Positions 25,143 through 46,456 of a stretch of 64,000 bases of DNA are shown here, in pieces. Below the pieces are notes generated by a model. It made no database searches and was not told where the DNA came from. It was given only the letters and a program-made list of their open reading frames with translations. Each line of letters opens with the position of its first letter. The stretch's first letter is position 1. The stretch covers positions 8,595 to 72,594 of the forward strand of contig JAJYJH010000008.1 of NCBI GenBank assembly GCA_021789695.1, in the 5' to 3' direction. The position numbers and the translations under genes are program-made. The stretch comes from a bacterium. Lineage in GTDB: Bacteria > Elusimicrobiota > Elusimicrobia > Elusimicrobiales > UBA9959.

Positions 25143-25143
25143 C

Positions 25144-26199: not shown

Positions 26200-26237
26200 T
26201 CCGCCGCCCTGCCGCCGGAGATGGACGGGGCAGTTTT

Positions 26238-29797: not shown

Positions 29798-30807
29798 ATA
29801 AAAAAACGCGGCTTCTGGCCCCAGACTATGGTCTCGGGCTGCACCACCATGGTGACTTGCACTCCCGAAAAAACGGCCGCCAAGTCCGGGGCGCCGACGC
29901 CGCGGCGCAGAGCGAAGAAAGGCGCCGCCAGCAAGGCCTCCAAAGGGTTCAGGCGCCTGAGCCTTCCCAGATATCGTCCACGCCATCTGCGGCTCAGCTC
30001 CTGCGCTGCGGAAAAGAACTCCGGAGAATGGAAACGCCGGCCGCGCCCGGAGGACACTGCGAAGAACCATTTATTCTTCCCGGTGGAAGAGGACGGGAGC
30101 GTGGCGCAGAGGCGGAAGCCGGGGACCGCGCCGGAAAGGGCCGACAGCACGGCCCCGGCCCCGCACTCCGACTCCAGCAGTGCGGCCCGCTCCGGGCCGG
30201 AAACGCTCTCGGGGGTCTTAAAGGCCACGAAAAGGACCAGGTCGGCAAGATCGGGCCTGGACAGGGCCCAGGAGTGGACCGCCGGCGCTCCGTCGAGGTT
30301 GCGCCTGGAGACGGTCATGTTGAAATAGCAGGAGCCTACTCCGGCGTCGCGCACCATCCCCCCGAGGCGCGCGCGCAGGGAATTGAGCGCGGCCTCGTCG
30401 GCTCCTTTCCAGCCCTCCCGGTCCTGCATGGAGTCCACGTGAAGACAGACCCCGGCTAGGCCCGCGGATTTAAGCGCCTTCAGGCGCGCCGGGGACAGCA
30501 GGGAACCGTTGGTATTTACGAAGGGGCGCAGTCCGGCTCTGGCCGCGTGCCTGACCGCCTCCTCGATATGCGGGTAGCACAACGGATCGCCTCCTGCGAA
30601 AGCCAGGACGTCCGTGCGCACCCCCGAGGCCACCGAGTCTATCTCGGCCAGGACTTCTGGCAAAGACCTGTGCTTACCCGGAAAATTGGAGGAAAAGCAG
30701 CCAGGGCAGTGCATATTGCACTCCTTCGTAGGCTCCAGCCAGGTAATTATAGTGTCGGCAAGAGTCCAAGGCAGGCGGTATGGCCGCGGCGTTGCGGATA
30801 AGGTCAT
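29794..30807 (-). CDS. Radical SAM protein
   Basis: ECNMHCPGCF (CX3CX2C), FAGGDPLCYP, and GGAGGA/GGAGAA Shine-Dalgarno. First gene of the operon. Confidence 0.75.
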   Translation of the reverse strand: MTLSATPRPYRLPWTLADTIITWLEPTKECNMHCPGCFSSNFPGKHRSLPEVLAEIDSVASGVRTDVLAFAGGDPLCYPHIEEAVRHAARAGLRPFVNTNGSLLSPARLKALKSAGLAGVCLHVDSMQDREGWKGADEAALNSLRARLGGMVRDAGVGSCYFNMTVSRRNLDGAPAVHSWALSRPDLADLVLFVAFKTPESVSGPERAALLESECGAGAVLSALSGAVPGFRLCATLPSSSTGKNKWFFAVSSGRGRRFHSPEFFSAAQELSRRWRGRYLGRLRRLNPLEALLAAPFFALRRGVGAPDLAAVFSGVQVTMVVQPETIVWGQKPRFFI

Positions 30808-30921
30808 TTATTCTCCGTCCTCCGCAAGAAAATGCGCCTCGTCGCCGGCCGGATGCCGGTCATTCTCCTGGCACGGAGAGATCTCGCGGGCTGCATCGAT
30901 AGCGGCTTTTCCTTAAGTCCC

Positions 30922-30927
30922 ATTATA
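30922..30927 (-). promoter_or_regulatory. Candidate -10 (TATAAT) for the radical SAM-to-methyltransferase operon
   Basis: Minus-strand TATAAT about 115 nt upstream of ATG 30807 in the 165-bp gap. No clear -35. Confidence 0.3.
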
Positions 30928-30972
30928 TTAAATGCCTCGCCGCCGGGGCGCTTGGGCCGCGTCGGAATGCGG

Positions 30973-31743
30973 TCAGGCGCGGCCTGGCCCGAGCAGCGTA
31001 CCCGGCCGGGACCGTCCGGCGAGAAAGGAAACGAGGCCCTCCGGGCGCCTGCCGTCGAGCACGAGGGCCCGCCCCCCTCCTCGCACTATCTCCAGCAGTT
31101 CGGCAGCCTTGCCGCGCATCCCCCCGCTTACGTCTCCCGGCTCCCGGGGACAGGCGCGGGAGAACGCCTCCAGGCCCGGCTCGTCCAGCTCCGGCAGCAC
31201 CGCGCCGGCGGCGTCCAGCAACCCCGGCGCGTCGGTGAAGAATACCGCCAGGCGCGGCCGCAGCAGCCCGCAGAGCCCGACGGCCAACGCGTCGCTGGAG
31301 ACCACTACGCCGCCCCCAGTCCCGTCGGGAAATATACCGCTGGAGACCACCGGCACGAGTCCTGACGCCAGCGGGGCCTCGATAGCAGAAGCATCCGCGG
31401 GCACGGGGCGCCCCCCCCTCAATAAAAAATACTCCGGCCCCGGCACACTTCCGACCACCAGCCCGGCCGAGCGCAGTTCCCGGAGAAATGCCAGATGAAG
31501 GCGCAGAAGGGAAGTATTGATGGCGTCTACGGGCGCCCCGCCCGGAGGTACCCTGCCGGACAGGTAGCCGTAGCGAAGGGCCGGAGGCTTGCCGAAGGAA
31601 CCGGTGCCGTGGACCAGCGCGAAAGGCTCGCGCAGTTCTGCCAGAGAGGCCGCCAGGCGCGAGGCGGCCGCCCGGTCAAAGACCGGAGACTCCCCTTTGC
31701 GGGTTATCACGCTGCCACCGGCTTTTATCACCAGCATCGCCAT
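30973..31743 (-). CDS. Isopentenyl phosphate kinase family (amino-acid-kinase fold) protein
   Basis: VIKAGGSVITRK, LVHGTGSFGK, LVPVVSSG, FFTDAPGLL and DVSGGMRGK, aligned by eye to archaeal IPK motifs. Confidence 0.65.
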   Translation of the reverse strand: MAMLVIKAGGSVITRKGESPVFDRAAASRLAASLAELREPFALVHGTGSFGKPPALRYGYLSGRVPPGGAPVDAINTSLLRLHLAFLRELRSAGLVVGSVPGPEYFLLRGGRPVPADASAIEAPLASGLVPVVSSGIFPDGTGGGVVVSSDALAVGLCGLLRPRLAVFFTDAPGLLDAAGAVLPELDEPGLEAFSRACPREPGDVSGGMRGKAAELLEIVRGGGRALVLDGRRPEGLVSFLAGRSRPGTLLGPGRA

Positions 31744-31761: not shown

Positions 31762-32814
31762 ATGAGCTCCGGAGCCAAAGACGGGAAGGGCGGGCCTGAG
31801 CCGGGGAAGCCGTCACCCCGCGCGCTGCTTGAGCTGGCCGCGCTTAAGGCCAGACTCCTGAAACTGCCTGAAGGCGCCCCCGGCACGCTCTATATCGCGC
31901 TCACCTACCGCTGCGATCTCTCCTGCCGTCACTGCAAGTACCGTTCCTCGGCGCCGGGCCCGGATATGCCGTTCGGAGACCTGAGGCGGCTGCTGGAAAA
32001 CGCCGCCGCCTCCGGCATACCCCGCGTCGCCTTTTTCGGCGGAGAACCGCTACTCTACCCGCGCCTGGAACAGGCCGTGCGCCTGGCCTCGGGACTTGGG
32101 CTTTTTACGCAGCTGGACACCAACGGCCAGACGCTGGGCGCCCGGAGGGCCTTGGAACTTGCAGCCGCCGGGCTCTCCCTTGCCACTATCAGCCTGCACT
32201 CCGCCGATGAGGCCGGGCACGACGCCCTAAGCGGACTTGGCTCATTCCGCAAGGCCATCGCGGCGGTTTCGGCGGCCCTGCGCGCCGGGCTCTTCGTCCA
32301 CGTCTCCTCTTGTTTCTTCTCGGCCGGGCTTTCCTCCGGAGAACCGGGCCGGCTGGCGGCCTTCGCCCGCGGCCTGGGCGCCCACGGCGCAAGGGCGCTG
32401 CTCTATTCCCCGCCGGAGGGCGGTTCCGCGGACCTGCCGCGCCGCTTGTCAAAGGCCTTGGCCGCGGCCGACCTGGACGGCTTCTCGCGCGGCTGCGTCC
32501 GCTCCGGCCGGCGAGCCTGCGCCGCAGCCGCCGGGGACATACTTTTCACGGACGCAGGATTGAACGTGAAGAGCTGCCCCTACTCCGTCCGGTCGCTGGG
32601 AAAGGCCACGGCCGGGCTGCGCCGCTTCTTCGGCGGCGAGCGCGCTCCCGCCGGTCTCTTCCCCTGCCATTCCCCACGCCCATCCTGCCGCGCAGCTAGC
32701 GCAGGCCGTAATTTTGCTAAAATAATCAGATGCGAGAGGCTAGGAAGAACAAAGCCATATCCGAATCCGTCAGCTGGCGCAAGACCGGTGAAGAGGCCGT
32801 CCTCCTTGACCTAG
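31762..32814 (+). CDS. Radical SAM peptide-maturase-like enzyme with a partial SPASM/twitch region
   Basis: YRCDLSCRHCKY (CX3CX2C), FFGGEPLLYP, and C-terminal C-x12-G-x5-C (ACAAAAGDILFTDAGLNVKSC). The last ~30 codons run across an AT-rich spacer into the PqqD gene. Confidence 0.75.
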   Translation: MSSGAKDGKGGPEPGKPSPRALLELAALKARLLKLPEGAPGTLYIALTYRCDLSCRHCKYRSSAPGPDMPFGDLRRLLENAAASGIPRVAFFGGEPLLYPRLEQAVRLASGLGLFTQLDTNGQTLGARRALELAAAGLSLATISLHSADEAGHDALSGLGSFRKAIAAVSAALRAGLFVHVSSCFFSAGLSSGEPGRLAAFARGLGAHGARALLYSPPEGGSADLPRRLSKALAAADLDGFSRGCVRSGRRACAAAAGDILFTDAGLNVKSCPYSVRSLGKATAGLRRFFGGERAPAGLFPCHSPRPSCRAASAGRNFAKIIRCERLGRTKPYPNPSAGARPVKRPSSLT

Positions 32815-33014
32815 AAACCTCGGAGTATTACTCCCTTAACGACACCGGCACGTTCATATGGGAGCGTTTCGCCGCCGGCAAGCCGCTCTCCTCGATAACC
32901 GAAGAACTGGCCGCCGAATACGGCATATCCGCCGGCCAGGCCGAGCGCGACGCCGAGGCCTTTCTCAAGGACCTATCCGTCCTGAAGATCCTGAACGAGG
33001 GGGACGCTAAATGA
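32730..33014 (+). CDS. PqqD-family peptide chaperone (stand-alone RRE)
   Basis: EAVLLDLETSEYYSLNDTGTFIWE followed by a winged-helix-like tail. 94 aa. Confidence 0.8.
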   Translation: MREARKNKAISESVSWRKTGEEAVLLDLETSEYYSLNDTGTFIWERFAAGKPLSSITEELAAEYGISAGQAERDAEAFLKDLSVLKILNEGDAK

Positions 33015-33115
33015 AACGCCAGAAGACCAGCCAGCCCAAACAGAAAAAATACCGCAAACCGCAGATAAAATCCCACGGCAAGCTAAGTGAAGTCGCCTCG
33101 GCGTTCAAGCCCTAA
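33011..33115 (+). CDS. Candidate RiPP precursor peptide, 34 aa (MKRQKTSQPKQKKYRKPQIKSHGKLSEVASAFKP)
   Basis: Not in the ORF track (below 60 aa). The ATG overlaps the PqqD stop (ATGA), and GAGGGGG lies 7 nt upstream. The Y14-P17-I19-G23 spacing equals the RRE-recognised leader motif YxxPxL-x3-G. Locally A-rich. Confidence 0.55.
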   Translation: MKRQKTSQPKQKKYRKPQIKSHGKLSEVASAFKP

Positions 33116-34070
33116 GCGGAAGACCGCTTTTCTTTTCCCGGGCTCCGGGGCGCAATACCCCGGGATGGGGCGCGCGTTGCGGAACGCCTTCCCCCCGATA
33201 GAGCGGCAGCTCGCCTTCATCGACCGCGCCGCGCTGCGTCCCCTTTCCGCCGCGATGGACGGGCCGGCCAGTCTCCTTTTTCCGGAGAAGACGCACGCGG
33301 ACCCGACCGTGTTCATGGAAGTAGTAATGGAACTGTCGCTGGCCGTGGCCTTGTCCATGACGGAGGCCGGCGCCCATCCTGACGCGGCAGCAGGGCGCAG
33401 CATGGGCGAATACAGCGCCGCCGCCTTCACCGGTGTATTAACGATGAGCGACTGCTTTGAACTGGTCCGCTTCGTGACGCTGAAGGGGCAGGAGGACTGC
33501 CTGGCGCAGCCGAGCGTTCTCGCGACGGTTTACGGCCTGACCAGGCGCGAGCTCGCGGCGGCGGCGGCAAAAGTGGCCGCTGCCGGTGAACCCTGCGAAG
33601 TGACAGTCTTCTACGACAAGGCCCGCCTCGGAGTGGCCGGCCTGCGCGAAAGCGCCCTGCCGTTGCTAAAGAAGGCCCTCTTACCGCTGCGCCACCGACT
33701 GAGCCTTTCGCGGGAACCCGGGGCCTTCCACACAAGCCTTTTCGACAGGCTGGCCGCCGGGGCGGCCGCGAAATTCGGGGAAACGCCCTTCTCCGCGCCG
33801 GCCATGCCACTTTACATGAACGCCGACGCGCGCAGGGCCACCTCCGCGCGGACCGTCAGGGAGAAGTTGGCAGCGGCGCTGAACAGCCCCGTACTCTGGC
33901 AGGAGACCATAGAGCGCATGCTGGCCGACGGGGTGCGTAACTTCGTGGAGCTGGCGCCAGGCGCGATGCTGACCGAGTTCGTCTGCGAACTGCCGCCCGA
34001 CGCCGAGGTCCTGCGCACGGACACTCCCGGGAACTACGCCAGAACCCTGCAAAGGCTGGCCGGGAAATGA
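33087..34070 (+). CDS. FabD-like acyltransferase (malonyl-CoA:ACP transacylase family)
   Basis: FLFPGSGAQYPGMG and nucleophile elbow GRSMGEYSA. The only in-frame start is GTG 33087, inside the small ORF. Confidence 0.75.
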   Translation: MKSPRRSSPKRKTAFLFPGSGAQYPGMGRALRNAFPPIERQLAFIDRAALRPLSAAMDGPASLLFPEKTHADPTVFMEVVMELSLAVALSMTEAGAHPDAAAGRSMGEYSAAAFTGVLTMSDCFELVRFVTLKGQEDCLAQPSVLATVYGLTRRELAAAAAKVAAAGEPCEVTVFYDKARLGVAGLRESALPLLKKALLPLRHRLSLSREPGAFHTSLFDRLAAGAAAKFGETPFSAPAMPLYMNADARRATSARTVREKLAAALNSPVLWQETIERMLADGVRNFVELAPGAMLTEFVCELPPDAEVLRTDTPGNYARTLQRLAGK

Positions 34071-35086
34071 TCCCGACGGAAGAACTTCACTTCGACCTCG
34101 GCGGCTGCAGGGTACTATTCTCCTGCGGGGACCCGCTCCTCTCCTTCGCCGTAGCCGCAAGCCTGTCCGCTTTCTCGGCCCCGCCCGGACACCCGGACAT
34201 CAGCATATCCGCCGAACTCGGCACAGTCTCCTCCGCGGGCCTCTCCCCAGCCCTCTTCTCCACGCGGCGCTGGAAAGTACTCAAGGCCCCGGCCGGCAGA
34301 CGCCTGGTCTGGTACCCGGAAGGGGCCGTCTGCGAATACGATTTCAGGACGCGCACCGGACGGCTGCGCTCCGCCGACCGCGCGCTGTTGGAGGAACTCT
34401 CCTATCTGCTGATACTGTCGCGGGCCGGGGAGGAACTAGACCTGGCCGGACTGCACAGGCTGCACGCCGGCGCGCTGGGCCACTCCGGGCAGGCGCTGCT
34501 CTTCTGCGGCCCGCGCGGCTCGGGTAAGACCACGCTGTTGCTGGAGCTGCTCAAGGACTCCGCTTTTTCGCTGCTTTCCGACGACACGCCGCTGGTGAGC
34601 GCGGACGGGTCGGTGCTGCCTTTTCCGGCCCGCGTCGGCCTTGCGCTCGACAGCCCACATCTGCCCGGCTTCGGCGGTCTGCGCCGGCTGGAGCGCCGCC
34701 ATTATCCGCCCAAGCGCCTGCTTGACACCGTCAAGGCGGGCTTCAGGCTGGCGGGCCCGCTGCCGCCCGGGGCTCTTTTCCTGCTCAGGCGCTCGGAACG
34801 GGCGCGGATACGCCGCGCGGCCATTCCCGCCGCCGCGGCGGAACTGGCCGTCTCGCTGGCCGTCGGCTGGGGCGTGCCGCAGCTGGCCGAATACTTCCTG
34901 AGGGCGGAACCGGAAGATCTCCTGCGCAAGGGCGGCATACTGGCCTCCAGGCTTCGGGCCGCGGCCCGCCTGCTCCGGCGCTCCGGCCGCTATATCTTCG
35001 AACTTTCCCCCGACCACGCGAGAAACGCGCAGGAACTCAGGGCCTTCCTTGGCAGCGGCAGCGCGCAGGGCGCGCGCGGCCTCTGA
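34067..35086 (+). CDS. HprK-related kinase (HPr kinase C-terminal-domain-like P-loop protein)
   Basis: LFCGPRGSGKTTLLLEL followed by LLSDDTPLV. ATGA overlap with the acyltransferase. Confidence 0.6.
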   Translation: MIPTEELHFDLGGCRVLFSCGDPLLSFAVAASLSAFSAPPGHPDISISAELGTVSSAGLSPALFSTRRWKVLKAPAGRRLVWYPEGAVCEYDFRTRTGRLRSADRALLEELSYLLILSRAGEELDLAGLHRLHAGALGHSGQALLFCGPRGSGKTTLLLELLKDSAFSLLSDDTPLVSADGSVLPFPARVGLALDSPHLPGFGGLRRLERRHYPPKRLLDTVKAGFRLAGPLPPGALFLLRRSERARIRRAAIPAAAAELAVSLAVGWGVPQLAEYFLRAEPEDLLRKGGILASRLRAAARLLRRSGRYIFELSPDHARNAQELRAFLGSGSAQGARGL

Positions 35087-36053
35087 ACGTTTCCAACAGT
35101 TCCTCCAAAGCTCCGAATATCCAGCCCGCGCCGTAAGCAGCGTGCAGCGCCGGGTAAAGGCAGAACACAAGCGGCGCGTCAGACGCGCCTGCACCGGATA
35201 AAATCGCGGAAACCGCGCAGGCCGAAAGATAGAGAAGGCCGAGCGCGCAGGCCGTCCCCGGCGCCGCCGCGGCCAGCACCGGCCCGGCCGCGAGGGCCGC
35301 CGGCGGCAGCAGCGTGAAGGCGCAGAAACCGCTGCGGGCCTGGACCGTTATCTGGCCCCTCCCCCGCCCGGAGGAAAAGACCTGACGGACGAAAGCCCCT
35401 GCGGAGGTCCTGCGGCGGTGCACCAGATTGAGGTCCCCGCTCAGCAGCATACGCGCTCCGTCCGCGGCCATTCTGCCCAGCAGCAGGTTCTCCTCGGCGC
35501 TACTCAGATGTCCCTCAAAGGAAAGCCCGCGCGCGGCCAGGAATTCCCTGTCCAGCGTCAGATTGCAGAGCACGAACTTGCCGGGACCGGCCTCGTAGGA
35601 GCCGGAAACGGGGGCGAACCTGGGCGTGAACGGCCCGCTTGCCCAGCGCGAGCGCAGCAGCCGGTAGACCGCGCGCTCGAAACGGCCGGCCCCGGAGTAA
35701 AGTTCCTGCCCGCCGCCGAATACGGAAAAGCCGCCGCCCGCCTCTATCAGCGCCCTCAACCGCCAAAAGTACCCCGGCGGCAGAACGGTGTCGTCGTCCA
35801 GGAAACAGAGCCAGCGCCCGGAAGCCAGGCGGACCAGCTCGTTGCGGGCCTCCCCGCGGCAGCCCCGTGGCAGCTGTACGGCGCGGGTGCCCGGGAACTT
35901 TCCCAGCACTCCGGAGGAGGCTGGATCGGCCCCGTCGATCCCCACCAGCACTTCGCCGGGGACTCCGGCTGCCCGCAGGCTCTCCAGGCATCGGGCCAGC
36001 AGCTCCGGCCTGCCGCGTGTAAGTATGATAACGCTTATCTCAGCGCCCGGCAT
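35037..36053 (-). CDS. Family 2 glycosyltransferase with a C-terminal membrane region
   Basis: ISVIILTRGRPELL and CFLDDDTV, plus hydrophobic C-terminal helices. Confidence 0.7.
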   Translation of the reverse strand: MPGAEISVIILTRGRPELLARCLESLRAAGVPGEVLVGIDGADPASSGVLGKFPGTRAVQLPRGCRGEARNELVRLASGRWLCFLDDDTVLPPGYFWRLRALIEAGGGFSVFGGGQELYSGAGRFERAVYRLLRSRWASGPFTPRFAPVSGSYEAGPGKFVLCNLTLDREFLAARGLSFEGHLSSAEENLLLGRMAADGARMLLSGDLNLVHRRRTSAGAFVRQVFSSGRGRGQITVQARSGFCAFTLLPPAALAAGPVLAAAAPGTACALGLLYLSACAVSAILSGAGASDAPLVFCLYPALHAAYGAGWIFGALEELLETFRGRARPARCRCQGRP

Positions 36054-39000
36054 CGTCCAGCCTCCCGGCCGCCGCGGCGGTCTGGGCCGCCGTGAACAGA
36101 TAATTCTCCCGGTTATAACCGCCTTTCAGAAAGGCGTTCCAGTCCGGAGAAGCCGCCCCGAAAGCCGCGCGGAACCGCTCCGCCAGTTCGGCGGGGCGGG
36201 AGAACGGAACCGCCTCCCCGGTCTCCAGCAGCAGACGCAAGCCGGCGGCCCGCGTAAAAAAATAATGCGGCGGCATGGTCCCCCAGAAAGAGCGCCAGGA
36301 AACCGCGAAATGCCTGGCCGCCAGCACGGCGCCGCCCTTCAGCGCCTCCGCAGTGGGCGCCGGCAGGACGTCCACTCCTGAAGAATAGATCCCGCCGTCC
36401 TCCGGCCGCGCCCCGCGGCCGCCGTAAAGCAGGTCCAGCGCCAGCGACGGATTGTTGAGATACGGCAAGCCGCACAGGGCCGCGAAGGAGGCGCGGGTAA
36501 GCAGCAGCGGAGCCGCAGAAAAATAGTGGAACGAACCGCGCGCCTTCAGGAAAGCTTCTGCGGCGCGCAGGAAGAAGTCCCTGTCTGCGGCTGCCTCGTC
36601 CGGCAGCACGACGTAGACCCGGTAGAGCGGGTCCAGGACGACCCCGGCCTGGCCGCCGGCTCCGGCCGCCAGTTCCGCGCACGCGGCTTCGAAAGCGTGG
36701 GTATTGAAAAGGCCGGCGGCGGGGGGCGGCGCGGGGCGACCGCCGGAGAAAGGAGGGCAGGCGGCGTGCAACGAGGCGAAAGCGGCGAAGGCCGAGTCGG
36801 CCGGGGCCGGTGAAAAGGCCGGGCCTGCGCCGAAATGCGAGGCGGTGTAGGCGGACCGGCTCTCCCTCTCCGGGGAGCCCGGGTCCGTGTAGCGCCTGAC
36901 GTCTATCATGCTTTTGGCGCAGTTGCGGCGGCGGAAGGCCGGCGGCAGATCTGGAGACAAAAAATGGCCCAGCAGCAGAGTGTAGGCGTAGAAGGCCTCG
37001 GTCAGATCGGCCTGGGGAGAGTTCTCCGGAGGCTGCATCACGAGCCGCGCCCCGCCAAGCAGGCGGGAAGCCCTCTCGAACTCCGCTCCCTTCACCCCCC
37101 AGCAGCGCATAAAGGAGGAGAACTCCGCCGCCGGGGACTGCAGCGCCTCTCCGGTGAATGGGAACAGCGCGCGAAAAAAACGCAGCTTCCGGCGCAGCGA
37201 AACGAAAAGTTCCCAATCCGCCGCGGGAGGTCCCGGCGGGAACAGCAGCGCCAGGTCCATGTCGCTCAGCCCCGGAACCCAGCCGCCTGAAACCATGCCG
37301 CGGTACAGGTAAACCGAGCCGCCCCGCCCCGGGCGGAGCAGTAGCCCCGCGGCGCCGGCGGCGGCCAGGTAGAGCGCTCTATAGAAGCCGCTGAAAAACG
37401 GGAAGCGGGAGGTGGCGGCCGCGAAACGGAACAGCGCGGAGCGCAGCGCGGACCGGGACGGCCGCCGGAGTGGCGCCTCCCAGGGCAGCCCGTCGAAAGA
37501 CACGTCAGAGCAGCGCAGGTTTGCGCCGTCCCCTGCGGCCAAGCCCGGATAGGGGGAACCGGAAAGGACGCAGCCGCGCAGGAATGCGCTCCCCCCGGAG
37601 ACCCGGAGCCCGCCGTGGGAGCCGCCCAGCACTATCAGGCCGCGGGCGCGCAGCCTCGCGCCGCGCAGTTCCGCCCCGTATTCCTCGCCACGCAGCGTCA
37701 GGTTCTCAGCCTCTATGTCCGCGGGCGCAGAAGCGGAGAGCCCCCCTTTGCCGGAGGCGCTCACGGAAAGCAGTCTGACTCGCCGCGCCGAAATATCCAG
37801 ACCGGCCCCGGCGCCGGCCGCCAGAGAGGAGTTGGATAGTTCCACCGAAGTTCCCGCCGCGGCGCGCAGCGCGGACGAGGCAGAGACGAACTCCGAGGAA
37901 ACCGCGCGGAGGGAGGAGGCCCCTTCCGCCGAGACCGCAGGCCCGCCCACCCCCTCCGCTTTCAGGGCATCGAGCGAAGCCGAGGAGCGCCCCGAAATGG
38001 CCAGCGCCGGAAATCCGCCGCAAGAGCGCAGGACGCAGGAATAGGCCCGCAGTCCAGCCAGACCGCCGGCGGCAACGACCGGGCCGCCGGAACTTTCCGC
38101 GTTCACCCTGGTCACCGATGCCGAGGAGCGTTCAGAAAGGACCAGCGCCGGCGGAGCGCCGGAGGAACGACAGGAGGAAAAGAACAGCGAAGCGCGGCCT
38201 GCCAGTTCCGCGGCCGGTCCGGAGTTGCCGAAAAACTCCGAGTTCTCCGCGCGCAAGCCGGCTCTGCCGGCGGCGTAAAGCCCGGCGCCGCAGTTCTTCA
38301 CGGAACAGCCGTCCAGAGAGGCGGACACGGAACCTTCGGCATAGAGGGCCGGCCCGGCCAGGTCGGAGAACGCGCACTTCCCCGCCCGCAGCAGGGAGCG
38401 CCCGGCCGCCATTATCCCAGCGGCGCAGCCGTGGACGGAAAGGCCAAAGAACCCCGCCGAGGCGTCCCCCCAGAGCTCGGCCGCGGGGCCGGAAGAGGCA
38501 GAAATCAAGCCGCTCCGGAAAAGGACGACGGCCGCTCCAGAGACCAGCAGAGCCGGCCCTCTGCCGGCCGAAAAAGAGCAGTCCTCCAGCGAGGCCGAGG
38601 AGCGCCCATAGAGCTCGGCGCCGCGTTCGACGGATTCTACCGCGCAGGAGCGCGCATCCACCCGCCCCCGGTCCCTGGCCGACAGAGCGCAGCCGGAAAC
38701 CGCGCGCAGCGTGCAGCGGGACAGTTCCAGTACGGCGTCCCCAAGCGCGTGAAGACCGGCGAAGCCAGGCCCGGAAAAGGTTATCCCCGCGGCCGGGCCG
38801 CCAGCGGCCTTGAGAGCGCCATAGACCAGCAGTTTGGCCCCGGCACTCTCGAGGGAAAGCGTCCCGCCGCCGGCCGAGGCGCGCAGGACCGGAAAGAACC
38901 ATGGTTCGCGGCGTTCAAAGAACACCTCGGTGCCAGGCAGGACCGTCACTGTGACTCCGCGCTCTATGGTAAGATAGTCCGCCACCGTCACCCGGCCGCT

Positions 39001-39591
39001 CCAGGTCTCGTCGCAGGAGATACGTCCGCTCTTCAGCAGCCCGGCCGGAGCGGGGCCGGAGGAAGGCAGGCGGGCGGGAAGGGCGGCCAGCGCGGAGAGG
39101 GCAGGGTAGACGCGGGACTCCCAGGCCAGCCAGAGGGGGTCCAGCAGCGAGCCCTCGCGGCCGGGCAGCAGGCGGCAGAGCAGGCGGAACGCCGACGAAG
39201 CGACGGCCACCGAGAGGTAGAGCAGCTTCGCGGCCGCGGCGGAATAGACGGCCAGGAAAAAACCGCGCGCCCCTCCGCGCGGCAGCCGCCGGCGCGTCCC
39301 CGCCCGGTCGAAGGCCGTCACGAGACCGCCGGGTTTAAAGGCGGAAGGCGGCCAGTCCGGCAGCAGATTGGCGTCGCCCTTGCAGAGAAAAAGGCGCCGC
39401 CCCAGGAACGAAGCGTTCAGCAGCACCCGGTGTATGACGTAGCCGCAGGGAAGGGCGCCCCGCCATTTAACCAATAGCGCAACGTCTCCGGAAACGACCT
39501 CGGCCGGCGCGCAGCGGCGCACGTGCGCCGCGTCTCCCGGCTCCAGGAGAAAACGCATCGAATGCCCAAGAACCGGGTAGGTCTTTTCCAA
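36040..39591 (-). CDS. 1183-aa multidomain protein: S24/S26 (SipW/Sec11-like) peptidase, TM segment, parallel beta-helix repeats, TM segment, nucleotidyltransferase-fold domain
   Basis: GHSMRFLLEPGD, VIHRV and CKGDANLLPD at the N-terminus. About 500 aa of Gly/Ala/Ser/Cys periodic repeats follow. Then YRGMVSGGWVPGLSDMDLALLF (NTase G-S/DxD pattern). Confidence 0.7.
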   Translation of the reverse strand: MEKTYPVLGHSMRFLLEPGDAAHVRRCAPAEVVSGDVALLVKWRGALPCGYVIHRVLLNASFLGRRLFLCKGDANLLPDWPPSAFKPGGLVTAFDRAGTRRRLPRGGARGFFLAVYSAAAAKLLYLSVAVASSAFRLLCRLLPGREGSLLDPLWLAWESRVYPALSALAALPARLPSSGPAPAGLLKSGRISCDETWSGRVTVADYLTIERGVTVTVLPGTEVFFERREPWFFPVLRASAGGGTLSLESAGAKLLVYGALKAAGGPAAGITFSGPGFAGLHALGDAVLELSRCTLRAVSGCALSARDRGRVDARSCAVESVERGAELYGRSSASLEDCSFSAGRGPALLVSGAAVVLFRSGLISASSGPAAELWGDASAGFFGLSVHGCAAGIMAAGRSLLRAGKCAFSDLAGPALYAEGSVSASLDGCSVKNCGAGLYAAGRAGLRAENSEFFGNSGPAAELAGRASLFFSSCRSSGAPPALVLSERSSASVTRVNAESSGGPVVAAGGLAGLRAYSCVLRSCGGFPALAISGRSSASLDALKAEGVGGPAVSAEGASSLRAVSSEFVSASSALRAAAGTSVELSNSSLAAGAGAGLDISARRVRLLSVSASGKGGLSASAPADIEAENLTLRGEEYGAELRGARLRARGLIVLGGSHGGLRVSGGSAFLRGCVLSGSPYPGLAAGDGANLRCSDVSFDGLPWEAPLRRPSRSALRSALFRFAAATSRFPFFSGFYRALYLAAAGAAGLLLRPGRGGSVYLYRGMVSGGWVPGLSDMDLALLFPPGPPAADWELFVSLRRKLRFFRALFPFTGEALQSPAAEFSSFMRCWGVKGAEFERASRLLGGARLVMQPPENSPQADLTEAFYAYTLLLGHFLSPDLPPAFRRRNCAKSMIDVRRYTDPGSPERESRSAYTASHFGAGPAFSPAPADSAFAAFASLHAACPPFSGGRPAPPPAAGLFNTHAFEAACAELAAGAGGQAGVVLDPLYRVYVVLPDEAAADRDFFLRAAEAFLKARGSFHYFSAAPLLLTRASFAALCGLPYLNNPSLALDLLYGGRGARPEDGGIYSSGVDVLPAPTAEALKGGAVLAARHFAVSWRSFWGTMPPHYFFTRAAGLRLLLETGEAVPFSRPAELAERFRAAFGAASPDWNAFLKGGYNRENYLFTAAQTAAAAGRLDDAGR

Positions 39592-39611
39592 AAGACTCTC
39601 CTCGCCCCGCC

Positions 39612-40471: not shown

Positions 40472-42241
40472 ATGGCCACGGCGCCCGGACAGCGTAAACA
40501 TATTCTTTTTGCCTTCCTTGCCTTCGCCGCCGGTCTGACCGCCCAGCTCCCAGCCGTGACCGACAGGCTGCTGTGGGACGACGCGCAGTTCGTCGCGCGG
40601 AATCCCTTCGTCTCCGACTGCGCCAACCTCGCCAAGGCGCTGGACCCCGTCTATCTCTTCAAGGTCCTGCCAGTACGCATGAGCGCCAGGCCGGTGGTGA
40701 ATGCCGCGCTGCTGGCGGACGTCTGCTCCGGCGCAGGGCCGCGCGGTATGCGGATCACGAACGTGCTGCTGCACGCCTGCGGCGCGGCCATGCTCTTCGC
40801 TCTGTTGCTGGTTTTATGCGGCTCTCCGCCGGCGGCCCTGTTCGGAGCGCTGGTCTTCGCCATCCATCCGGCCGTCTCGGAAGCCGTGCAGATAGTCGCG
40901 TTCCGCTCCCACCTGCTCGGATTCTTTTTCTTTTCAGGGGCGCTCGCGCTGGCGGTCCTGGCCGGACGCGGGGCCGGGACCGCAGCCTCCCTGGCGGGCG
41001 CGGCGTGCTATTTGCTGGCCGTCCTGAGCGTGGAGACGACCGCGGTCCTGCCCCTCTCAGCGGCCCTGGCCGTCTGGTTCGATTCGGGGAGGGATGGCCT
41101 CAGGCGCGCCGCCCCGCTCTTCGCGGCCCTGGCGCTGATTGGGGCCTTCTACCTGTGGTTCAGGGTCCCGCGCTCGGGTTACGAACTGCCCGGCTCGAAG
41201 CCGGGCGTCTCCGCCCCGTCAGTTCTCTACCCGGCCGGCCTTCTTCCGCCCCCCTCCGCGCCGCAGGCAGCCGGGCGAGGCTGGAGCGAGCTGCCTCCCT
41301 GGCGCGCTGTTTACGCCAGCGGCAGCGCCAACCTCTACACGATGTCAGCGGTCACGCTGGACTACCTGCGAGAGCTGGTCCTGCCCCTTGGCCTGAAAGC
41401 GGACTATGCGCCCAAGGTAATAACTGACCCGCGGCGCGGCCTGAGGGCGCTGGCGATCTGCCTGGCGGTACTGGCGTCTGGGCTGATCCTTTTTTTCAGG
41501 AGGCGGCTCTCCGGGCTGGGGCTGATGCTGACGTTGATAGCCCTGCTGCCGGCCCTGGACCTGGTGCACATCTACAACCTGCGGGCGGACCGCTATCTTT
41601 ACCTGCCGCTGGCGGGCTTCGCGCTGCTTGCCGCGGCCGCTTTCAGGCGGGCGGACAATCTGGGCGGGCCCCTCAGGGCGGCGGTCCTGGCCGCCGGGGC
41701 CGCCTGGCTGGCCGGCCTCGGCGCGCTCACCGTCTCGCGCTGGCCGCAGTTCGCCGACGACAAAGCGCTCTTTTCGGCGGCAGCCGCCGGAGGCTCGCCC
41801 AGGGCGCACGCCAACCTGGCTGGAACGCTGCTGCGGGATGGCGACTGCGGCGGAGCGGTCAAAGAATCGGCCGAGGCGGCAAGGCTAGACCCAGGGGATC
41901 CCTTCCTGCGTCTTAGGCTGGGTTACGCGCTGGCCTGGTGCGACCGCGGTAGGGAGGCCATAATCGCCATAGGCAGCGTCCCCGAGACCCCCGACACGGT
42001 TTTCCTGCACGGTCTGGCTTATATGGAAAGCGATCCGGAAAAGGCGGCGGGGCTGATAAACGCCGCGCTCAAAAAGGAGCCGGGACGCGCGGATATGCGG
42101 CTGGCCCTGGCCTTAGCCCTGGGCAGGGCGCCGGCCGGGTTGGACCCCGCCTCCGCGGCCGAATTCGCCGCGGTGCAGGCCTCCTTTAAGAAAGGCGGCC
42201 TGCGCGGCGCGACGCTCAGTGCTTTAGGCCGAAATTGGTGA
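40472..42241 (+). CDS. Polytopic membrane protein with C-terminal TPR repeats (PMT_2/TMTC-like GT-C candidate)
   Basis: LLWDDAQFVARNPFV N-terminal motif, about 10 TM helices, and a TPR tail. Confidence 0.55.
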   Translation: MATAPGQRKHILFAFLAFAAGLTAQLPAVTDRLLWDDAQFVARNPFVSDCANLAKALDPVYLFKVLPVRMSARPVVNAALLADVCSGAGPRGMRITNVLLHACGAAMLFALLLVLCGSPPAALFGALVFAIHPAVSEAVQIVAFRSHLLGFFFFSGALALAVLAGRGAGTAASLAGAACYLLAVLSVETTAVLPLSAALAVWFDSGRDGLRRAAPLFAALALIGAFYLWFRVPRSGYELPGSKPGVSAPSVLYPAGLLPPPSAPQAAGRGWSELPPWRAVYASGSANLYTMSAVTLDYLRELVLPLGLKADYAPKVITDPRRGLRALAICLAVLASGLILFFRRRLSGLGLMLTLIALLPALDLVHIYNLRADRYLYLPLAGFALLAAAAFRRADNLGGPLRAAVLAAGAAWLAGLGALTVSRWPQFADDKALFSAAAAGGSPRAHANLAGTLLRDGDCGGAVKESAEAARLDPGDPFLRLRLGYALAWCDRGREAIIAIGSVPETPDTVFLHGLAYMESDPEKAAGLINAALKKEPGRADMRLALALALGRAPAGLDPASAAEFAAVQASFKKGGLRGATLSALGRNW

Positions 42242-43106
42242 ACTGGAAAGAGGAGAGTTGCATAGACTTGAACTGAAGAGCGTCGCCGGAGTCTGCCTCC
42301 GTTCCGCCGGGGGCCGCCTTGTCCGATAAATTCTGCAGCCAGGCGGTCCATTTGCCGCTTAAATCGGCCCCCTCCCTGGTCCGGTAATAGGCCCAGAGCG
42401 CATCGTTAACGCTTTCCCCGTCCCGGACAGCATCGCAGAAAGCCTTGAACTGCAGCCGTTTATGCGGCTGGTACAGGTACTTGACGATACCGAAAGCCTG
42501 CAGGTACCAGTCGGCTATCTGCGCGTCCGAATGCAGGTCGTCCGTGCGGGTGTCGAAGAAACGGTTTAACGGGATGCGCCGGTCCGGGGAGAAATAAGGC
42601 AGGGCCCTGGTCCAAGGTCCGCCGTTAGGATAGACCGACTCCTCCATGTTGACGGCCAGGCCCTCGTTAAGCCATTGCGGCGGGTATTTCAGTTTCTCGG
42701 CGAAGTAGCTTTCGAAGTACAGATGCGTCAGTTCGTGGGCTATCACGGCCTTCAGTTTTATCATGTCCCCGGTATCGTAGACGACGATGGTCTTCTTCTG
42801 GACGAAGGCCAGCCCCTTGGACCAGGGCGGAGGGTGGAACTCCCCCCGCAGGTAGTCCTCGGCGGAGGAATAGATATAGATGTTGCTGCGCTCACGCACC
42901 ATCCACGGGGCGAACATCGCCAGGTTGAGGCGCATTGAAGAGTACATCCTCTCCATCTCCAGGGAGATGGAAGAGGGCGACCAGGAGGACTCGTACATTA
43001 TCCTGAAATGCGGGGAGGTGAGTACGTGCCAGCGCAAGGGAACCCGGGGCGGCGGCGCGGCGGTGGCCGGCGCCGTCAGCGCCAGCAGCAGCAGGGCATG
43101 AATCAT
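42216..43106 (-). CDS. Secreted MA-clan zinc metallopeptidase-like protein
   Basis: Signal peptide, HELTH zinc motif, and WLNEGLAVNME 19 aa downstream (gluzincin third ligand). Confidence 0.6.
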   Translation of the reverse strand: MIHALLLLALTAPATAAPPPRVPLRWHVLTSPHFRIMYESSWSPSSISLEMERMYSSMRLNLAMFAPWMVRERSNIYIYSSAEDYLRGEFHPPPWSKGLAFVQKKTIVVYDTGDMIKLKAVIAHELTHLYFESYFAEKLKYPPQWLNEGLAVNMEESVYPNGGPWTRALPYFSPDRRIPLNRFFDTRTDDLHSDAQIADWYLQAFGIVKYLYQPHKRLQFKAFCDAVRDGESVNDALWAYYRTREGADLSGKWTAWLQNLSDKAAPGGTEADSGDALQFKSMQLSSFQFTNFGLKH

Positions 43107-43119
43107 AGATGCCGGAGCG

Positions 43120-43455
43120 TCACTGGTCCTCGTTGGTGGTTATGCTGACGGGAAAAGAGCCATAGGGGTCTATGCCGGTACGGCTATACTGGACGGTAAC
43201 TCCGTCGGGATAGATATAGCCCGTGGAGGGAATAGAGGACAGCGTGGGATAGGCTCCGGTCGGGCTCCAGGCCAGCATCGTATACCCCATAATGGAATGC
43301 GCGTGCGTGACGGACGCCGCTGCCCGGTAATCGCGAGAGGCCAGCAGGTAACGGGCCATGACCCACTTCATTACCATCACGGCAATCATAGAAAGGATAA
43401 TTGCCATGACCAGCGTCTGAAGCATTATCATGCCTTCGCGGCGCGCGGTTCTCAT
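43120..43455 (-). CDS. Small pilus-operon membrane protein with a degenerate prepilin-like N-terminus
   Basis: REG/MIMLQTLVMAIIL: Gly followed by a hydrophobic helix, with Gln where Glu+5 is expected. Confidence 0.4.
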   Translation of the reverse strand: MRTARREGMIMLQTLVMAIILSMIAVMVMKWVMARYLLASRDYRAAASVTHAHSIMGYTMLAWSPTGAYPTLSSIPSTGYIYPDGVTVQYSRTGIDPYGSFPVSITTNEDQ

Positions 43456-43511
43456 CTTAATAGTCTAGCAGAGAAATACGCCGCCGGCAAGCGGACGGAC
43501 GGGAATGTGGC

Positions 43512-44195
43512 TCACGGGGTGTAAGGAACCTGCCCCTGCAGCAGGGTGTTCATGGAGAAGTCCACGTCGTGCTGCGCTCTGCCGAAGCTGTGCGCGGTGG
43601 CCTGCCAGAAGGAACGAAGCGAAACCCGCACCGCGCCGGGAGCGGCGGCTCCGTCCGCCGGTATGCGGGAGAAGATGTAGCCGGCGGAAGGAACGGCGTA
43701 CTGCATCAGTTTGGTGGCGCCAGGGGTGCCGCCGCAGTTGGGAACCGCGTAATACAGGTTGGGGTTGAAGATGGCAGGCGCGGCCTTGCCGCAGGCGGTG
43801 GCCGCGGAACTCCCGCCGACGTTGCCGTTGTAGTAGTAAAGGCTCTGGTAGCCGGGAGTAGAGGCGTCGTTGCCCAGACAGAACAGGTACCAGGTGGACG
43901 GAAGGGCGGGGTTAATAGGGTAGCAGCCGGTGAGCTGGTCCACGTTGGAGGCGAACTTCAGCACGGTGTCCCTGGCGTTCCTGGCGGGCCAATCGATGCG
44001 GGTGGCCGTGGGAAGCGTGTTCTGCAGCGCCTTCATCGCCACGACCACACCCGTTTTGATGACGTCGCTGCGGTAGTTCTGGAAGAAGTGTCTCTGGCTG
44101 GTGGAATAGATAGTGGCGAGGGAGGCGATCATGTAACTGAAGATGAGGACGGCCACCATCACCTCTATCAGTGTAAAAGCGCCTCTGGTCTTCAT
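43512..44195 (-). CDS. Prepilin-type N-terminal cleavage/methylation domain protein (minor pilin)
   Basis: MKTRGAFTLIEVMVAVLIF. Confidence 0.7.
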   Translation of the reverse strand: MKTRGAFTLIEVMVAVLIFSYMIASLATIYSTSQRHFFQNYRSDVIKTGVVVAMKALQNTLPTATRIDWPARNARDTVLKFASNVDQLTGCYPINPALPSTWYLFCLGNDASTPGYQSLYYYNGNVGGSSAATACGKAAPAIFNPNLYYAVPNCGGTPGATKLMQYAVPSAGYIFSRIPADGAAAPGAVRVSLRSFWQATAHSFGRAQHDVDFSMNTLLQGQVPYTP

Positions 44196-44197
44196 GA

Positions 44198-44698
44198 TCA
44201 GTCCGTATAGCTTAGCCTGAACGTAACCGCCTTGCAGGCGGTGGGATAGTCCGGAGGCGACCCCATAGGGAAGCCGCCGCAGGGCTGGCTCTGCACCGTG
44301 TAGGTGAAGCTGGCCTGGTGCGAAGGGTCCGGGCTCAGAATATTGGAGGGGTCGGAGGGATTGTACGGATCGTATGCCACCAGCGAGGAGATGTCGTGCG
44401 TGATATTGGGACGCAGCGCCCAGACATGGGAGGAATCCGCCGGCCAGAGGCCGTTGTTCGGCGAGCCCGGGATGCCGTTCACCATGTTCGGATTGGTCGG
44501 GTCCACGCTCACGTAGGCCTGCAGCGCCTGCTGGGCGTACTTGATGGCCATGGCCGCCGCGTCGCGCTTGTCCGCCTTGGCGCTGGAGACGAAGCTGGAG
44601 AGCATGACCGAGAAGACCGCCGTGCTCGTCATGGCGGCCACCATCGTGGCCATAGAGACCTCGATCAGCGTCTGGCCAGGTCTTCCGCGCAGTCTCAT
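44198..44698 (-). CDS. Pilin-like protein (minor pilin)
   Basis: RPG/QTLIEVSMATMV: Gly-1 and Glu+5. Confidence 0.55.
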   Translation of the reverse strand: MRLRGRPGQTLIEVSMATMVAAMTSTAVFSVMLSSFVSSAKADKRDAAAMAIKYAQQALQAYVSVDPTNPNMVNGIPGSPNNGLWPADSSHVWALRPNITHDISSLVAYDPYNPSDPSNILSPDPSHQASFTYTVQSQPCGGFPMGSPPDYPTACKAVTFRLSYTD

Positions 44699-44705
44699 AA
44701 GGTCC

Positions 44706-45170
44706 CTAGAACTGGGGACAGGAAGGAGCCCCGTTCAGATTAAAGCAGGCGCCGGCCGAGTCGAAATTATAGCCCCAGTTTGCGTAGACGCCGTTCCCGT
44801 TATTCCTGTGCGTGCAGGCGGTATTGCCGCCCCCGCAACTGAGCCCCACGGAGAAAATATAGGCGGAGGAGTCCCAGTCCTGCGGCGCCACGTAATTGCA
44901 GCGGACCAGGCGGCAGGCCGTGTAGTCAGAGGTGCTGCAGCCGCCTGAGTTGCAGCCGTTGGACAGGCTCCCCGAAAGGTTGACTCCGGGATAGTCCAGC
45001 TCGAACATCCGGTAGGAGTTGGAAAGCATGTGGCCGATGGCTATAGAGTCGGTGGCCTTGGAGGTCTCTATCGTTTTCTTGTAGTACGGCAGCCCTATGG
45101 AGGCGAGTATGCCGATAATCAGCACCACCACCATCATCTCTATCAGCGTAAAAGCAGGATATCCTTTCAT
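44706..45170 (-). CDS. Type IV pilin / pseudopilin (probable major subunit), Cys-rich
   Basis: MKGYPAFTLIEMMVVVLIIGILASIGLP, strong GGGGGAGAG Shine-Dalgarno, and eight Cys in the globular domain. Confidence 0.8.
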   Translation of the reverse strand: MKGYPAFTLIEMMVVVLIIGILASIGLPYYKKTIETSKATDSIAIGHMLSNSYRMFELDYPGVNLSGSLSNGCNSGGCSTSDYTACRLVRCNYVAPQDWDSSAYIFSVGLSCGGGNTACTHRNNGNGVYANWGYNFDSAGACFNLNGAPSCPQF

Positions 45171-45186
45171 TCTCTCCCCCCCCGCG

Positions 45187-46410: not shown

Positions 46411-46456
46411 ATATATATAGAAGTCTAACAGAAAGCGTGGATAGGCGCAATCCCCC

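Follow-up and report, generated by a model that had tools for sequence, protein, structure and literature searches.

A conserved Elusimicrobia fusion of a predicted S26B-type peptidase, a β-helix and a probable nucleotidyltransferase-fold domain, encoded beside a small-peptide cassette

The 64,000-nucleotide (nt) stretch analyzed here (positions 8,595 to 72,594 of contig JAJYJH010000008.1, assembly GCA_021789695.1; hereafter the window) comes from an Elusimicrobiales bacterium of the UBA9959 lineage and contains a minus-strand open reading frame (ORF) for a protein of 1183 amino acids (aa). This protein, referred to below as the fusion protein, joins a predicted S26B-type peptidase domain, a right-handed parallel β-helix and a C-terminal domain that probably has the polymerase-β nucleotidyltransferase (NTase) fold (Table 1). 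The initial annotation of the locus had placed genes for family 2 glycosyltransferases (GT2) on both sides of the gene and had described it as converging on a peptide cassette, and we confirmed both observations. The upstream and downstream glycosyltransferase genes, designated GT2a and GT2b, form one operon with the fusion gene, as judged from the spacing at the GT2a end, where a TTG start codon, preceded by a Shine-Dalgarno sequence, stands 20 nt past the GT2a TGA, and from the 14-nt overlap with GT2b, which suggests translational coupling.

The TTG at 39591 is the true start of the fusion gene, because AGGAG (39602-39598) precedes it with a 6-nt spacer, the 11 codons ahead of Met12 are encoded in frame in all 24 of the 24 related loci, often again from a Leu-type start codon, and the residues before Met12 are conserved at the protein level (M-E-K-x-Y-P-V-L-G-H-S). 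About half of the public gene models for the family (P0001, P0004 and others) begin at Met12, one residue past the catalytic serine, as does the NCBI record that is 100% identical to our protein and is 1172 aa long. Gene calls of this kind thus leave out window positions 39559-39591 (minus strand) and with them the proposed nucleophile, Ser11.

Table 1. Features of the locus, in window coordinates
Feature	Position	Strand	Remarks or basis
Fusion-protein ORF	36040-39591	-	1183 aa
Ribosome-binding site AGGAG (39598-39602) and TTG start codon (39589-39591)	39589-39602	-	Sequence read
S26B (SEC11/SipW)-like Ser/His peptidase domain, aa 1-105 (predicted)	39277-39591	-	Profile, AlphaFold2/Foldseek, conservation
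Ser11, candidate catalytic residue	39559-39561	-	Aligned with SEC11 Ser
His54, candidate catalytic residue	39430-39432	-	VIHRV box
Asp73, candidate catalytic residue	39373-39375	-	GDxN box
Asp79, candidate catalytic residue	39355-39357	-	GDxN..D box
Hydrophobic helix, aa 111-142 (segment 1)	39166-39261	-	Hessa ΔG; marginal membrane span or peripheral anchor
Right-handed parallel β-helix, aa ~187-705	37477-39033	-	Pfam PF13229
C-terminal domain, aa 714-1183, ~475 aa	36043-37452	-	AlphaFold2, Foldseek, profile, conservation
Polymerase-β-type NTase motif, aa 757-786	37234-37323	-	Within the core of the C-terminal domain
GT2a, upstream GT2 glycosyltransferase, 266 aa	39612-40412	-	First operon gene; Pfam Glycos_transf_2 1.5e-26
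GT2b, downstream GT2 glycosyltransferase, 338 aa	35037-36053	-	ATG overlaps the end of the fusion ORF by 14 nt
Convergent peptide cassette	31762-35086	+	Radical S-adenosylmethionine (SAM) enzyme, PqqD, 34-aa precursor, acyltransferase, kinase
Radical SAM enzyme	31762-32814	+	Peptide cassette
PqqD	32730-33014	+	Peptide cassette
34-aa precursor peptide ORF	33011-33115	+	Between PqqD and acyltransferase; sequence MKRQKTSQPKQKKYRKPQIKSHGKLSEVASAFKP
FabD-like acyltransferase	33087-34070	+	Peptide cassette
HprK-related/ScmC-like P-loop kinase	34067-35086	+	Peptide cassette
Multi-span membrane protein with LLWDD motif near N-terminus and C-terminal tetratricopeptide repeats (TPRs), divergent from operon	40472-42241	+	Pfam: TPRs only

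The N-terminal domain carries three motifs, GHSMRFLLEPGD at aa 9-20, VIHRV at aa 52-56 and CKGDANLLPD at aa 70-79, whose order had been recognized as that of S26B (SipW/Sec11-like) peptidases, an assignment with which both alignment and fold agree. A family profile of 21 members matched human SEC11C (E = 3e-4) and SEC11A (E = 1e-3) in the PDB, and the alignment paired Ser11, His54 and the segment GD73xNxxxD79 with the catalytic residues of SEC11, in which the corresponding boxes read HRV and KGDNNAVDD. We also obtained AlphaFold2 models for the two end domains. The N-terminal model had a predicted local distance difference test (pLDDT) score of 90.5, and its best Foldseek match in the PDB was again SEC11C (7p2q_A, probability 1.00, template-modelling score 0.59), followed by LexA, UmuD', λ repressor and bacterial signal peptidases (SPase I), which supports a LexA/signal-peptidase β-fold. 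Residues S11, H54, G72 and D73 are invariant in the family, the serine being counted in members with a complete N-terminus, and D79 is invariant in the 21 homologues with a complete N-terminus and nearly so across all 47. Distant members keep the Ser, the His and the two Asp residues together with the canonical SMxP proline, which is Phe in the clade of the fusion protein. Matches to curated families were sub-threshold: NCBIfam TIGR02228 (archaeal signal peptidase I) reached E = 8.5e-5 and 22.5 bits against a cut-off of 51.85, and a Pfam scan of the domain gave no S24/S26 match at E <= 1, with PF10502 and PF00717 below their thresholds. A stand-alone S26-like relative of 160 aa (L006) scored just above the PF00717 threshold. 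Motifs, predicted fold and conservation together identify the domain as a S26B-type Ser/His enzyme under purifying selection, and we predict that it is a peptidase. In ~65 members, no N-terminal membrane anchor, signal peptide or hydrophobic N-terminus was found, the serine standing already at residue 11. The domain thus begins at residue 1 without a membrane anchor, which is unusual for S26B enzymes. A LexA-like self-cleavage was considered and rejected, there being no sequence N-terminal to the catalytic core.

The central part of the protein matched Pfam Beta_helix (PF13229) in three stretches (E = 3.3e-20, 72.7 bits against a gathering cut-off of 25.9) and showed a repeat period of 22-23/45 aa, far above shuffled controls, as expected for the long right-handed β-helix proposed initially. 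It comprises a conserved N-cap (SGRIxxDETWSG...) and then ~18-19 coils of 22-23 aa, of which only the cap is well conserved. Coil number varies to such an extent that the C-terminal domain begins between residues 540 and 1118 among homologues, and in P0064, P0131 and P0165 the peptidase domain is joined to the C-terminal domain without any β-helix. Such variation in the number of coils, and even their absence, is easier to reconcile with a spacer or binding platform than with a catalytic domain.

In contrast to the β-helix, with its variable number of coils, the C-terminal domain keeps a fixed length of ~475 aa across the family. It is laid out as two N-terminal helices, an NTase core, a helical domain (K893, D897, R900) and a second α/β region. 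The core holds the motif YRG765M...GLS776D777MD779LA, with E815 on the next predicted strand as the third carboxylate. Residues R764, G765, S776, D777, D779 and E815 are invariant, as are K893, D897 and R900; when 29 diverse members were compared, the Ser and both Asp residues of the motif remained invariant and the Glu (E815) was at least 90% conserved. The polymerase-β-type signature seen in the initial annotation is thus intact, with invariant catalytic-type residues. The AlphaFold2 model of the domain was of high quality (pLDDT 89.3, predicted template-modelling score 0.90), and the minimal NTase AF0614 (1ylq) was matched, over the G...SDxD motif region only, at E = 2.7 with a single sequence, 0.5 with a close profile and 1.6e-3 with a diverse profile of 29 members. 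Scans of the whole protein, of 16 members and of 15 more distant relatives assigned the domain to no Pfam or NCBIfam family. Since the carboxylate triad is intact and lies on the expected secondary-structure elements, the domain has a probable polymerase-β NTase fold, its family being unplaced below the superfamily level. An exhaustive search of 1.84 billion representatives recovered it in 655 clusters at E <= 1e-3 (301 at E <= 1e-10), either alone or fused to a β-helix, a GT2 or a peptidase domain. The genomes concerned are mostly Elusimicrobia, with others from Terriglobia/Acidobacteriia, Pirellulales, Ignavibacteria, Dadabacteria, Gammaproteobacteria, Bdellovibrionota and KSB1, and the domain therefore represents a large unclassified family present in at least eight phyla.

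The three-domain fusion is a genuine, conserved gene. A search of 5.8 billion proteins returned 47 homologues at 27-84% identity, all in Elusimicrobia assemblies and annotated publicly as 'right-handed parallel beta-helix repeat-containing protein' or as hypothetical; with the more distant members found in a second, exhaustive search, at least 60 protein clusters, almost all from Elusimicrobia, share the three-part architecture, in the same operon structure each time. Profile queries of a word-indexed protein database returned one fragment only, Ala-rich words having probably swamped the candidate list. The ORF might instead be an artefact in which an assembly or frameshift error has run separate genes together, or its peptidase and NTase motifs might be inactive relics. 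The gene is indeed broken into two overlapping frames in one related metagenome-assembled genome (MAG; L016), and other lineages (L006 and L028) carry split arrangements. However, the break in L016, the only one in related MAGs, falls within the β-helix and not at a domain border, and the split versions reverse the order of the parts, the C-terminal-domain gene coming first and a separate small S26-like gene after it, so that they represent different architectures. Furthermore, the architecture is uninterrupted in at least 60 clusters from independent assemblies at 27-84% identity, and in both end domains the catalytic residues are unchanged or almost unchanged throughout the family. This explanation is already contradicted by the data and retains almost no likelihood; the assembly frameshift that the initial annotation had named as a refutation does not apply. 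In an Elusimicrobiaceae MAG (L018, 3-4492), two family members stand in tandem, the second, shorter one (893-aa ORF) having S26-like and C-terminal domains.

All three domain assignments of the initial annotation were thus supported by profile searches, Pfam and AlphaFold2/Foldseek, that of the NTase fold as probable. Its remark that no protein with this domain order had been described also holds for the databases and literature that we searched, where the combination was not found; nor did we find literature on Elusimicrobia β-helix/glycosyltransferase proteins, on SynChlorMet or on the combination of HprK, PqqD, NTase and radical SAM genes. The three folds are known; we found no earlier description in these sources of the way in which they are combined, of an S26B domain without an anchor or of the unclassified NTase-fold family.

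The protein had also been pictured as membrane-embedded, with two hydrophobic segments. The first of these exists, but it is only marginal as a membrane span, with a Hessa insertion free energy (ΔG) of +2.9 kcal/mol here and -2.5 to +6.7 across homologues, and it is followed by a conserved amphipathic helix with W157, E158 and P163 (ΔG +6 to +14). It may or may not span the membrane in the fusion protein. The second (aa 731-752) is not a membrane span according to its ΔG of +3.7 to +10.6, its invariant Tyr and nearly invariant Arg, and its counterpart in stand-alone relatives, an Arg-rich amphipathic helix at the very N-terminus; the model places it among the first helices of what would be a soluble C-terminal domain. 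With at most one marginal span, and relatives that lack export signals, the membrane-embedded picture is not upheld. On similar grounds we rejected a membrane domain of four helices and a periplasmic β-helix held between two spans, helices 144-178, 708-732 and 726-758 being too polar and the relatives again without export signals.

Relatives that consist of a β-helix and the C-terminal domain begin straight at the β-helix cap, with no signal peptide or membrane span, and none was found in stand-alone C-terminal-domain relatives. NTases require nucleoside triphosphates (NTPs). This requirement, the relatives without export signals and the existence of GT2–C-terminal-domain fusions together suggest that the β-helix and the C-terminal domain are cytoplasmic. 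For the peptidase domain, the evidence leans towards the cytoplasm as well: the domain is basic (net charge +9 here, family mean +3), the hydrophobic helix has more positive charge on its N-side flank than on its C-side flank, the hydrophobic stretch is just 12-15 residues long in the short relatives P0131 and P0165, the 160-aa stand-alone S26-like protein has neither membrane span nor signal peptide, and in L008 the S26-like domain lies ahead of a GT-C protein's first helix, which runs from inside to outside, and nothing between the two is convincing as a span. An N-out, C-in protein with a single span is the alternative. Its S26 domain would act in the periplasm as a dedicated signal peptidase, as SipW does, on an exported substrate of the adjoining GT-C/TPR or type II secretion/pilus genes, while the β-helix and NTase would stay in the cytoplasm. 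Such a topology is compatible with a cytoplasmic C-terminal domain; the helix has a ΔG of -2.5 to +2 in many homologues, where it is plausible as a span; synteny extends to the type II secretion/pilin operon and the GT-C/TPR gene; and, to our knowledge, all characterised S26 peptidases cut on the far side of the membrane, so that a cytoplasmic one would be unprecedented. However, no member has a signal peptide or N-terminal anchor, the basic domain and its positive flank disfavour export of the N-terminus, the stretch in P0131 and P0165 is short, and neither the 160-aa protein nor the L008 fusion has a span between the S26 domain and the cytoplasmic side. We consider the periplasm-facing arrangement improbable.

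The gene neighbourhood is fixed in ~20 complete Elusimicrobia loci, down to 32% identity: the GT-C/TPR gene diverges from the GT2a–fusion protein–GT2b operon, which in turn converges on the cassette read, from the end nearest the operon, as kinase, acyltransferase, peptide, PqqD and radical SAM enzyme. The order and orientation of the cassette are the same in about 22 Elusimicrobia loci. At the point of convergence, the 3' ends of the kinase gene and GT2b overlap by 50 nt (38 nt in L001). The multi-span TPR protein is probably a GT-C/PMT_2-like glycosyltransferase; its L008 relative has a PMT_2 match (3.7e-4) and an N-terminal S26-like domain. A GT2 gene lies directly upstream of the fusion protein in most complete loci, several distant phyla included, and more distant relatives still have a GT2 immediately beside the gene. 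The best NCBIfam match of GT2a was MftF-like (8.8e-26, under that model's cut-off). We rejected the idea that GT2a supplies the GT-C protein as a polyprenyl-phosphate sugar synthase, its best matches being MftF/EpsD-like and ArnC-like matches reaching only 4e-4. In genomes of Terriglobia, Pirellulales, Ignavibacteria, Bdellovibrionota and KSB1, an HprK-like gene stands beside the C-terminal domain; it directly adjoins the C-terminal-domain gene in L037, L043 and L047 and was also found in L035, L038 and L046. PqqD with radical SAM/SPASM genes occurs near the C-terminal domain in L007, L009, L043 and L045. A type II secretion/type IV pilus-like operon adjoins the locus (42216-48202, minus strand; T2SSE, T2SSF, several N-methyl pseudopilins and a Peptidase_MA_2 protein) and holds the same position in homologous loci at 32-53% identity (L001 1-7406; L003 1-7296).

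Alternative fusions join the same parts in other ways. In L008 and L030 the GT-C/TPR membrane protein carries the S26-like domain at its N-terminus, in P0064 that domain is joined directly to the C-terminal domain, and GT2 is fused to the C-terminal domain in P0089, P0093, P0098 and P0102. These arrangements link the peptidase domain with the C-terminal domain, with GT2 and with the TPR membrane protein, in what appears to be one functional unit.

The 34-aa peptide is conserved across about 22 Elusimicrobia loci and has a K-rich N-terminus. In lasso peptides, the leader motif YxxPxL sits at positions -17 to -12 and is read by the PqqD-like B1 protein (PMC10368454). Tyr14, Pro17 and Ile19 of our peptide match this motif at -17, -14 and -12, as YxxPxI...G, which predicts cleavage after Ser30 (V-A-S/AFKP, the slash marking the cut). 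The peptide variants end in VAS/AFKP, VAG/ADDDPVR, VAG/IIVRE, VTG/HAK, VEG/D and NVA/DAYY, the VTG/HAK variant being that of L018. At the predicted junctions, position -1 is a small residue (S, G or A) in all cases and position -3 is Val in five out of six. Small residues at -1 and -3 are the classic specificity of type I signal peptidases, and the predicted cut site of the peptide obeys this -3/-1 rule. The conserved K-rich body, followed by a variable tail of 1-7 residues (D, HAK, DAYY, IIVRE, ADDDPVR or AFKP), suggests that the peptide is a scaffold whose extreme C-terminus would be the product. The HprK-like neighbour carries the lasso-kinase motif (H..GPRGSGKT..SDD). In lasso clusters, HprK-like kinase, nucleotidyltransferase, PqqD and GT2 genes co-occur, the NTase sometimes being fused to the B2 leader peptidase, and in pseudomycoidin PsmN adds hexoses to phosphorylated Ser (PMC8498205, PMC7533575). 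A lasso pathway proper was rejected for this locus, as neither an Asn-synthase-like lasso cyclase nor a transglutaminase-like B2 was found among the neighbours.

We propose that the fusion protein is a tailoring enzyme that combines peptidase and NTase functions, as an analogue of the lasso B2–N fusions, and works with the GT2s; we give this reading a probability of roughly 0.4. A processing and tailoring hub had been suggested from the outset, and the part of that suggestion which ties the protein to the peptide cassette and the glycosyltransferases agrees with the genes around it. We infer its substrate, its chemistry, its topology and the order of steps as follows. The protein would be a three-module enzyme of a peptide-plus-glycan pathway, most likely on the cytoplasmic side and held near the membrane by one weakly hydrophobic helix. 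The 34-aa peptide, a K-rich leader or scaffold with Tyr(-17), Pro(-14) and Ile(-12), would be bound by PqqD and modified by the radical SAM enzyme before cleavage. The peptidase module, a putative Ser11/His54(/Asp79) endopeptidase of the SEC11/SipW type without membrane anchor, would take this peptide as its proposed substrate and cut after Val28-Ala29-Ser30, releasing the tiny C-terminal AFKP. The NTase module, with a predicted Mg2+/NTP-binding carboxylate triad, would use an NTP or a nucleoside diphosphate sugar to add a nucleotidyl or phospho-sugar group, acting with the HprK-like kinase in the way that PsmN acts with PsmK in the tailoring of pseudomycoidin, a lasso peptide. The β-helix of variable length may serve as a spacer or glycan-binding platform between the catalytic ends, and the two co-transcribed MftF-like GT2s might build or extend the sugar part.

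Several observations weigh against this proposal. The far-side action of characterised S26 enzymes and the plausible span in many homologues, both discussed above, count here too. A phospho-glycosylation of the PsmK/PsmN kind would need a Ser or Thr, and the predicted cores have neither. GT2, and not the peptide cassette, is the most deeply conserved partner. The S26-like domain occurs in L004, L005, L027, L008 and L030 with no such peptide, PqqD or radical SAM gene found within 10 kb, and the peptide occurs near C-terminal-domain genes in L031 and L033 with no S26-like domain in the examined flanks. Foldseek comparison of the C-terminal domain with the PDB returned mostly NTase-fold proteins among the best matches (ANT(9), AadA, terminal uridylyltransferase, NF45/NF90, MNT antitoxins and LinB), yet weakly (E at least 0.27, probability at most 0.69), and its two lowest E-values belonged to unrelated, low-probability matches. 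Pfam NTase models, including any family that holds the lasso N proteins, gave no match at E <= 10 in 16 C-terminal domains. We kept our estimate at this level because the function is deduced from context, peptide and S26-like domain do not always occur together outside the core clade, neither Ser nor Thr is present in the short cores, and GT2 is more deeply conserved.

The deep conservation of GT2 bears directly on the main rival explanation, namely that the protein is a glycan-assembly factor independent of the peptide, which with the two GT2s and the GT-C/TPR protein makes or finishes a polysaccharide or glycoconjugate. The β-helix would then bind the growing chain, and its length could set the spacing like a ruler; the NTase-fold domain would add a cap or decoration to the glycan, for example a phospho-substituent like those attached by LicD or WbdD-type terminators; and the S26-like domain would process a protein partner. 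The GT2–C-terminal-domain fusions and the joining of the S26-like domain to a PMT_2-like GT-C protein (L008, L030) are consistent with such a role, as are distant loci rich in GT4, GT2, methyltransferase and ABC-2 (Wzm/Wzt-like) genes, a β-helix that ranges from 0 to >1000 aa between two fixed ends, and the fact that PF13229 β-helices are typical of carbohydrate-active proteins. However, several phyla have radical SAM, PqqD and HprK-like genes beside the C-terminal domain, conservation of the K-rich peptide is strict in Elusimicrobia, and Pfam and NCBIfam scans detected no similarity to LicD, WbdD or a known glycan-modifying family. We regard this role as rather unlikely, and it is followed among the rivals by the periplasm-facing dedicated signal peptidase.

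A more far-reaching version of the peptidase–NTase proposal can also be formulated, which we hold to be unlikely. An S26B protease may have been recruited to the cytoplasm, to remove the leader or release the product in a new system that is related to lasso tailoring but has no cyclase. The C-terminal piece of 1-7 residues borne by a conserved K-rich scaffold would be modified by the radical SAM enzyme, then phospho-, nucleotidyl- or glycosyl-decorated by the NTase-fold domain, the kinase and the two GT2s, and then cut off, the β-helix being a platform or ruler for the glycan. If this were true, the product would be an undescribed kind of peptide-derived glycoconjugate or cofactor.

Beyond the locus itself, an ATP-binding cassette (ABC) transporter ATPase fused to a histone-deacetylase-like domain lies beside an ABC-2 permease (21460-23037, plus strand) and recurs in three species (L001 20835-22418; L003 19369-20988). 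A match to 4-(hydroxymethyl)-2-furancarboxaldehyde phosphate (4-HFC-P) synthase (MfnB-like, E = 3.5e-71; 24432-25160, minus strand), unexpected in a bacterium of this phylum, lies among polyprenyl synthetase and methyltransferase genes. The three polyprenyl synthetase genes occupy 25144-26373, 26238-27269 and 27870-29003, all on the minus strand. Plus-strand ORFs of 653, 466 and 177/188 aa in 26508-31500 have no family matches and are low-complexity, Arg/Gln-rich shadows of minus-strand genes; the true minus-strand genes there include a radical SAM gene (29794-30807) and an isopentenyl-phosphate-kinase-like gene (30973-31743).

The family is misannotated in public records, as 'β-helix repeat protein' or 'hypothetical', and half of the gene calls lack the catalytic serine. 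If confirmed, the anchorless S26B domain would provide the first example of a signal-peptidase-type enzyme with a role outside protein export, and would define a new class of leader or scaffold peptidase for ribosomal peptide natural products. The NTase-fold family, with 655 clusters in at least eight phyla, travels with GT2, HprK-like kinase, PqqD and radical SAM genes and thus offers a testable biosynthetic cassette in poorly studied phyla.

Four known systems can be compared with the fusion protein. With S26B signal peptidases (SEC11A/C, Bacillus SipW and archaeal signal peptidase I) its N-terminal domain shares the fold, the order of the boxes (GxSM..., HR, GDxN...D) and Ser/His(/Asp) instead of Ser/Lys catalytic residues, and, with SipW, a hydrophobic helix after the peptidase domain. 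Unlike them, it lacks an N-terminal anchor, starts at residue 1, stays below the thresholds of curated families, is fused to ~1,080 more residues, is probably cytoplasmic and has Phe for the SMxP proline in this clade, Pro being retained in distant members. The lasso set (B1, B2, K, the N proteins PsmN/BsfN, B2–N fusions and sometimes GT2) offers the leader motif YxxPx[L/I] at -17 to -12, a PqqD partner, GT2 genes, the kinase motif H..GxxGxGK[ST]..DD and a (here probable) NTase-fold enzyme fused to a presumed leader peptidase. It differs in that lasso B2 is a Cys transglutaminase-like enzyme whereas the peptidase here is Ser/His S26-like, and in that our locus has no lasso cyclase, cores of 1-7 residues only, a radical SAM enzyme and a FabD-like acyltransferase, and an inserted β-helix; compared with lasso N (PsmN/BsfN), the NTase domain is ~475 aa long and matches no Pfam NTase family, so that the likeness is one of context and fold only.

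The mycofactocin pathway (MftA/B/C/E/F) likewise has a small precursor with a functional extreme C-terminus, a PqqD-type recognition element with a radical SAM enzyme, a peptidase releasing the C-terminal piece (here predicted), and GT2s, for which MftF is the best curated match. In contrast to the S26-like domain, however, MftE is creatininase-like; the GT2s here fall far under the MftF cut-off, there is no MftD, and kinase, NTase and β-helix modules are added. Finally, minimal and aminoglycoside NTases (AF0614/1ylq, MNT antitoxins, ANT(9) and AadA) share with the C-terminal domain the motif hG[GS]...[DE]x[DE], a third carboxylate on the next strand and an NTase core followed by a helical domain, and rank at the top among its confident structural matches, whereas the domain here is 2-5 times larger, includes a second α/β region as well as many further Arg, His and Tyr residues that are invariant, and matches them weakly (E = 1.6e-3 in sequence, over the motif only; Foldseek E at least 0.27).

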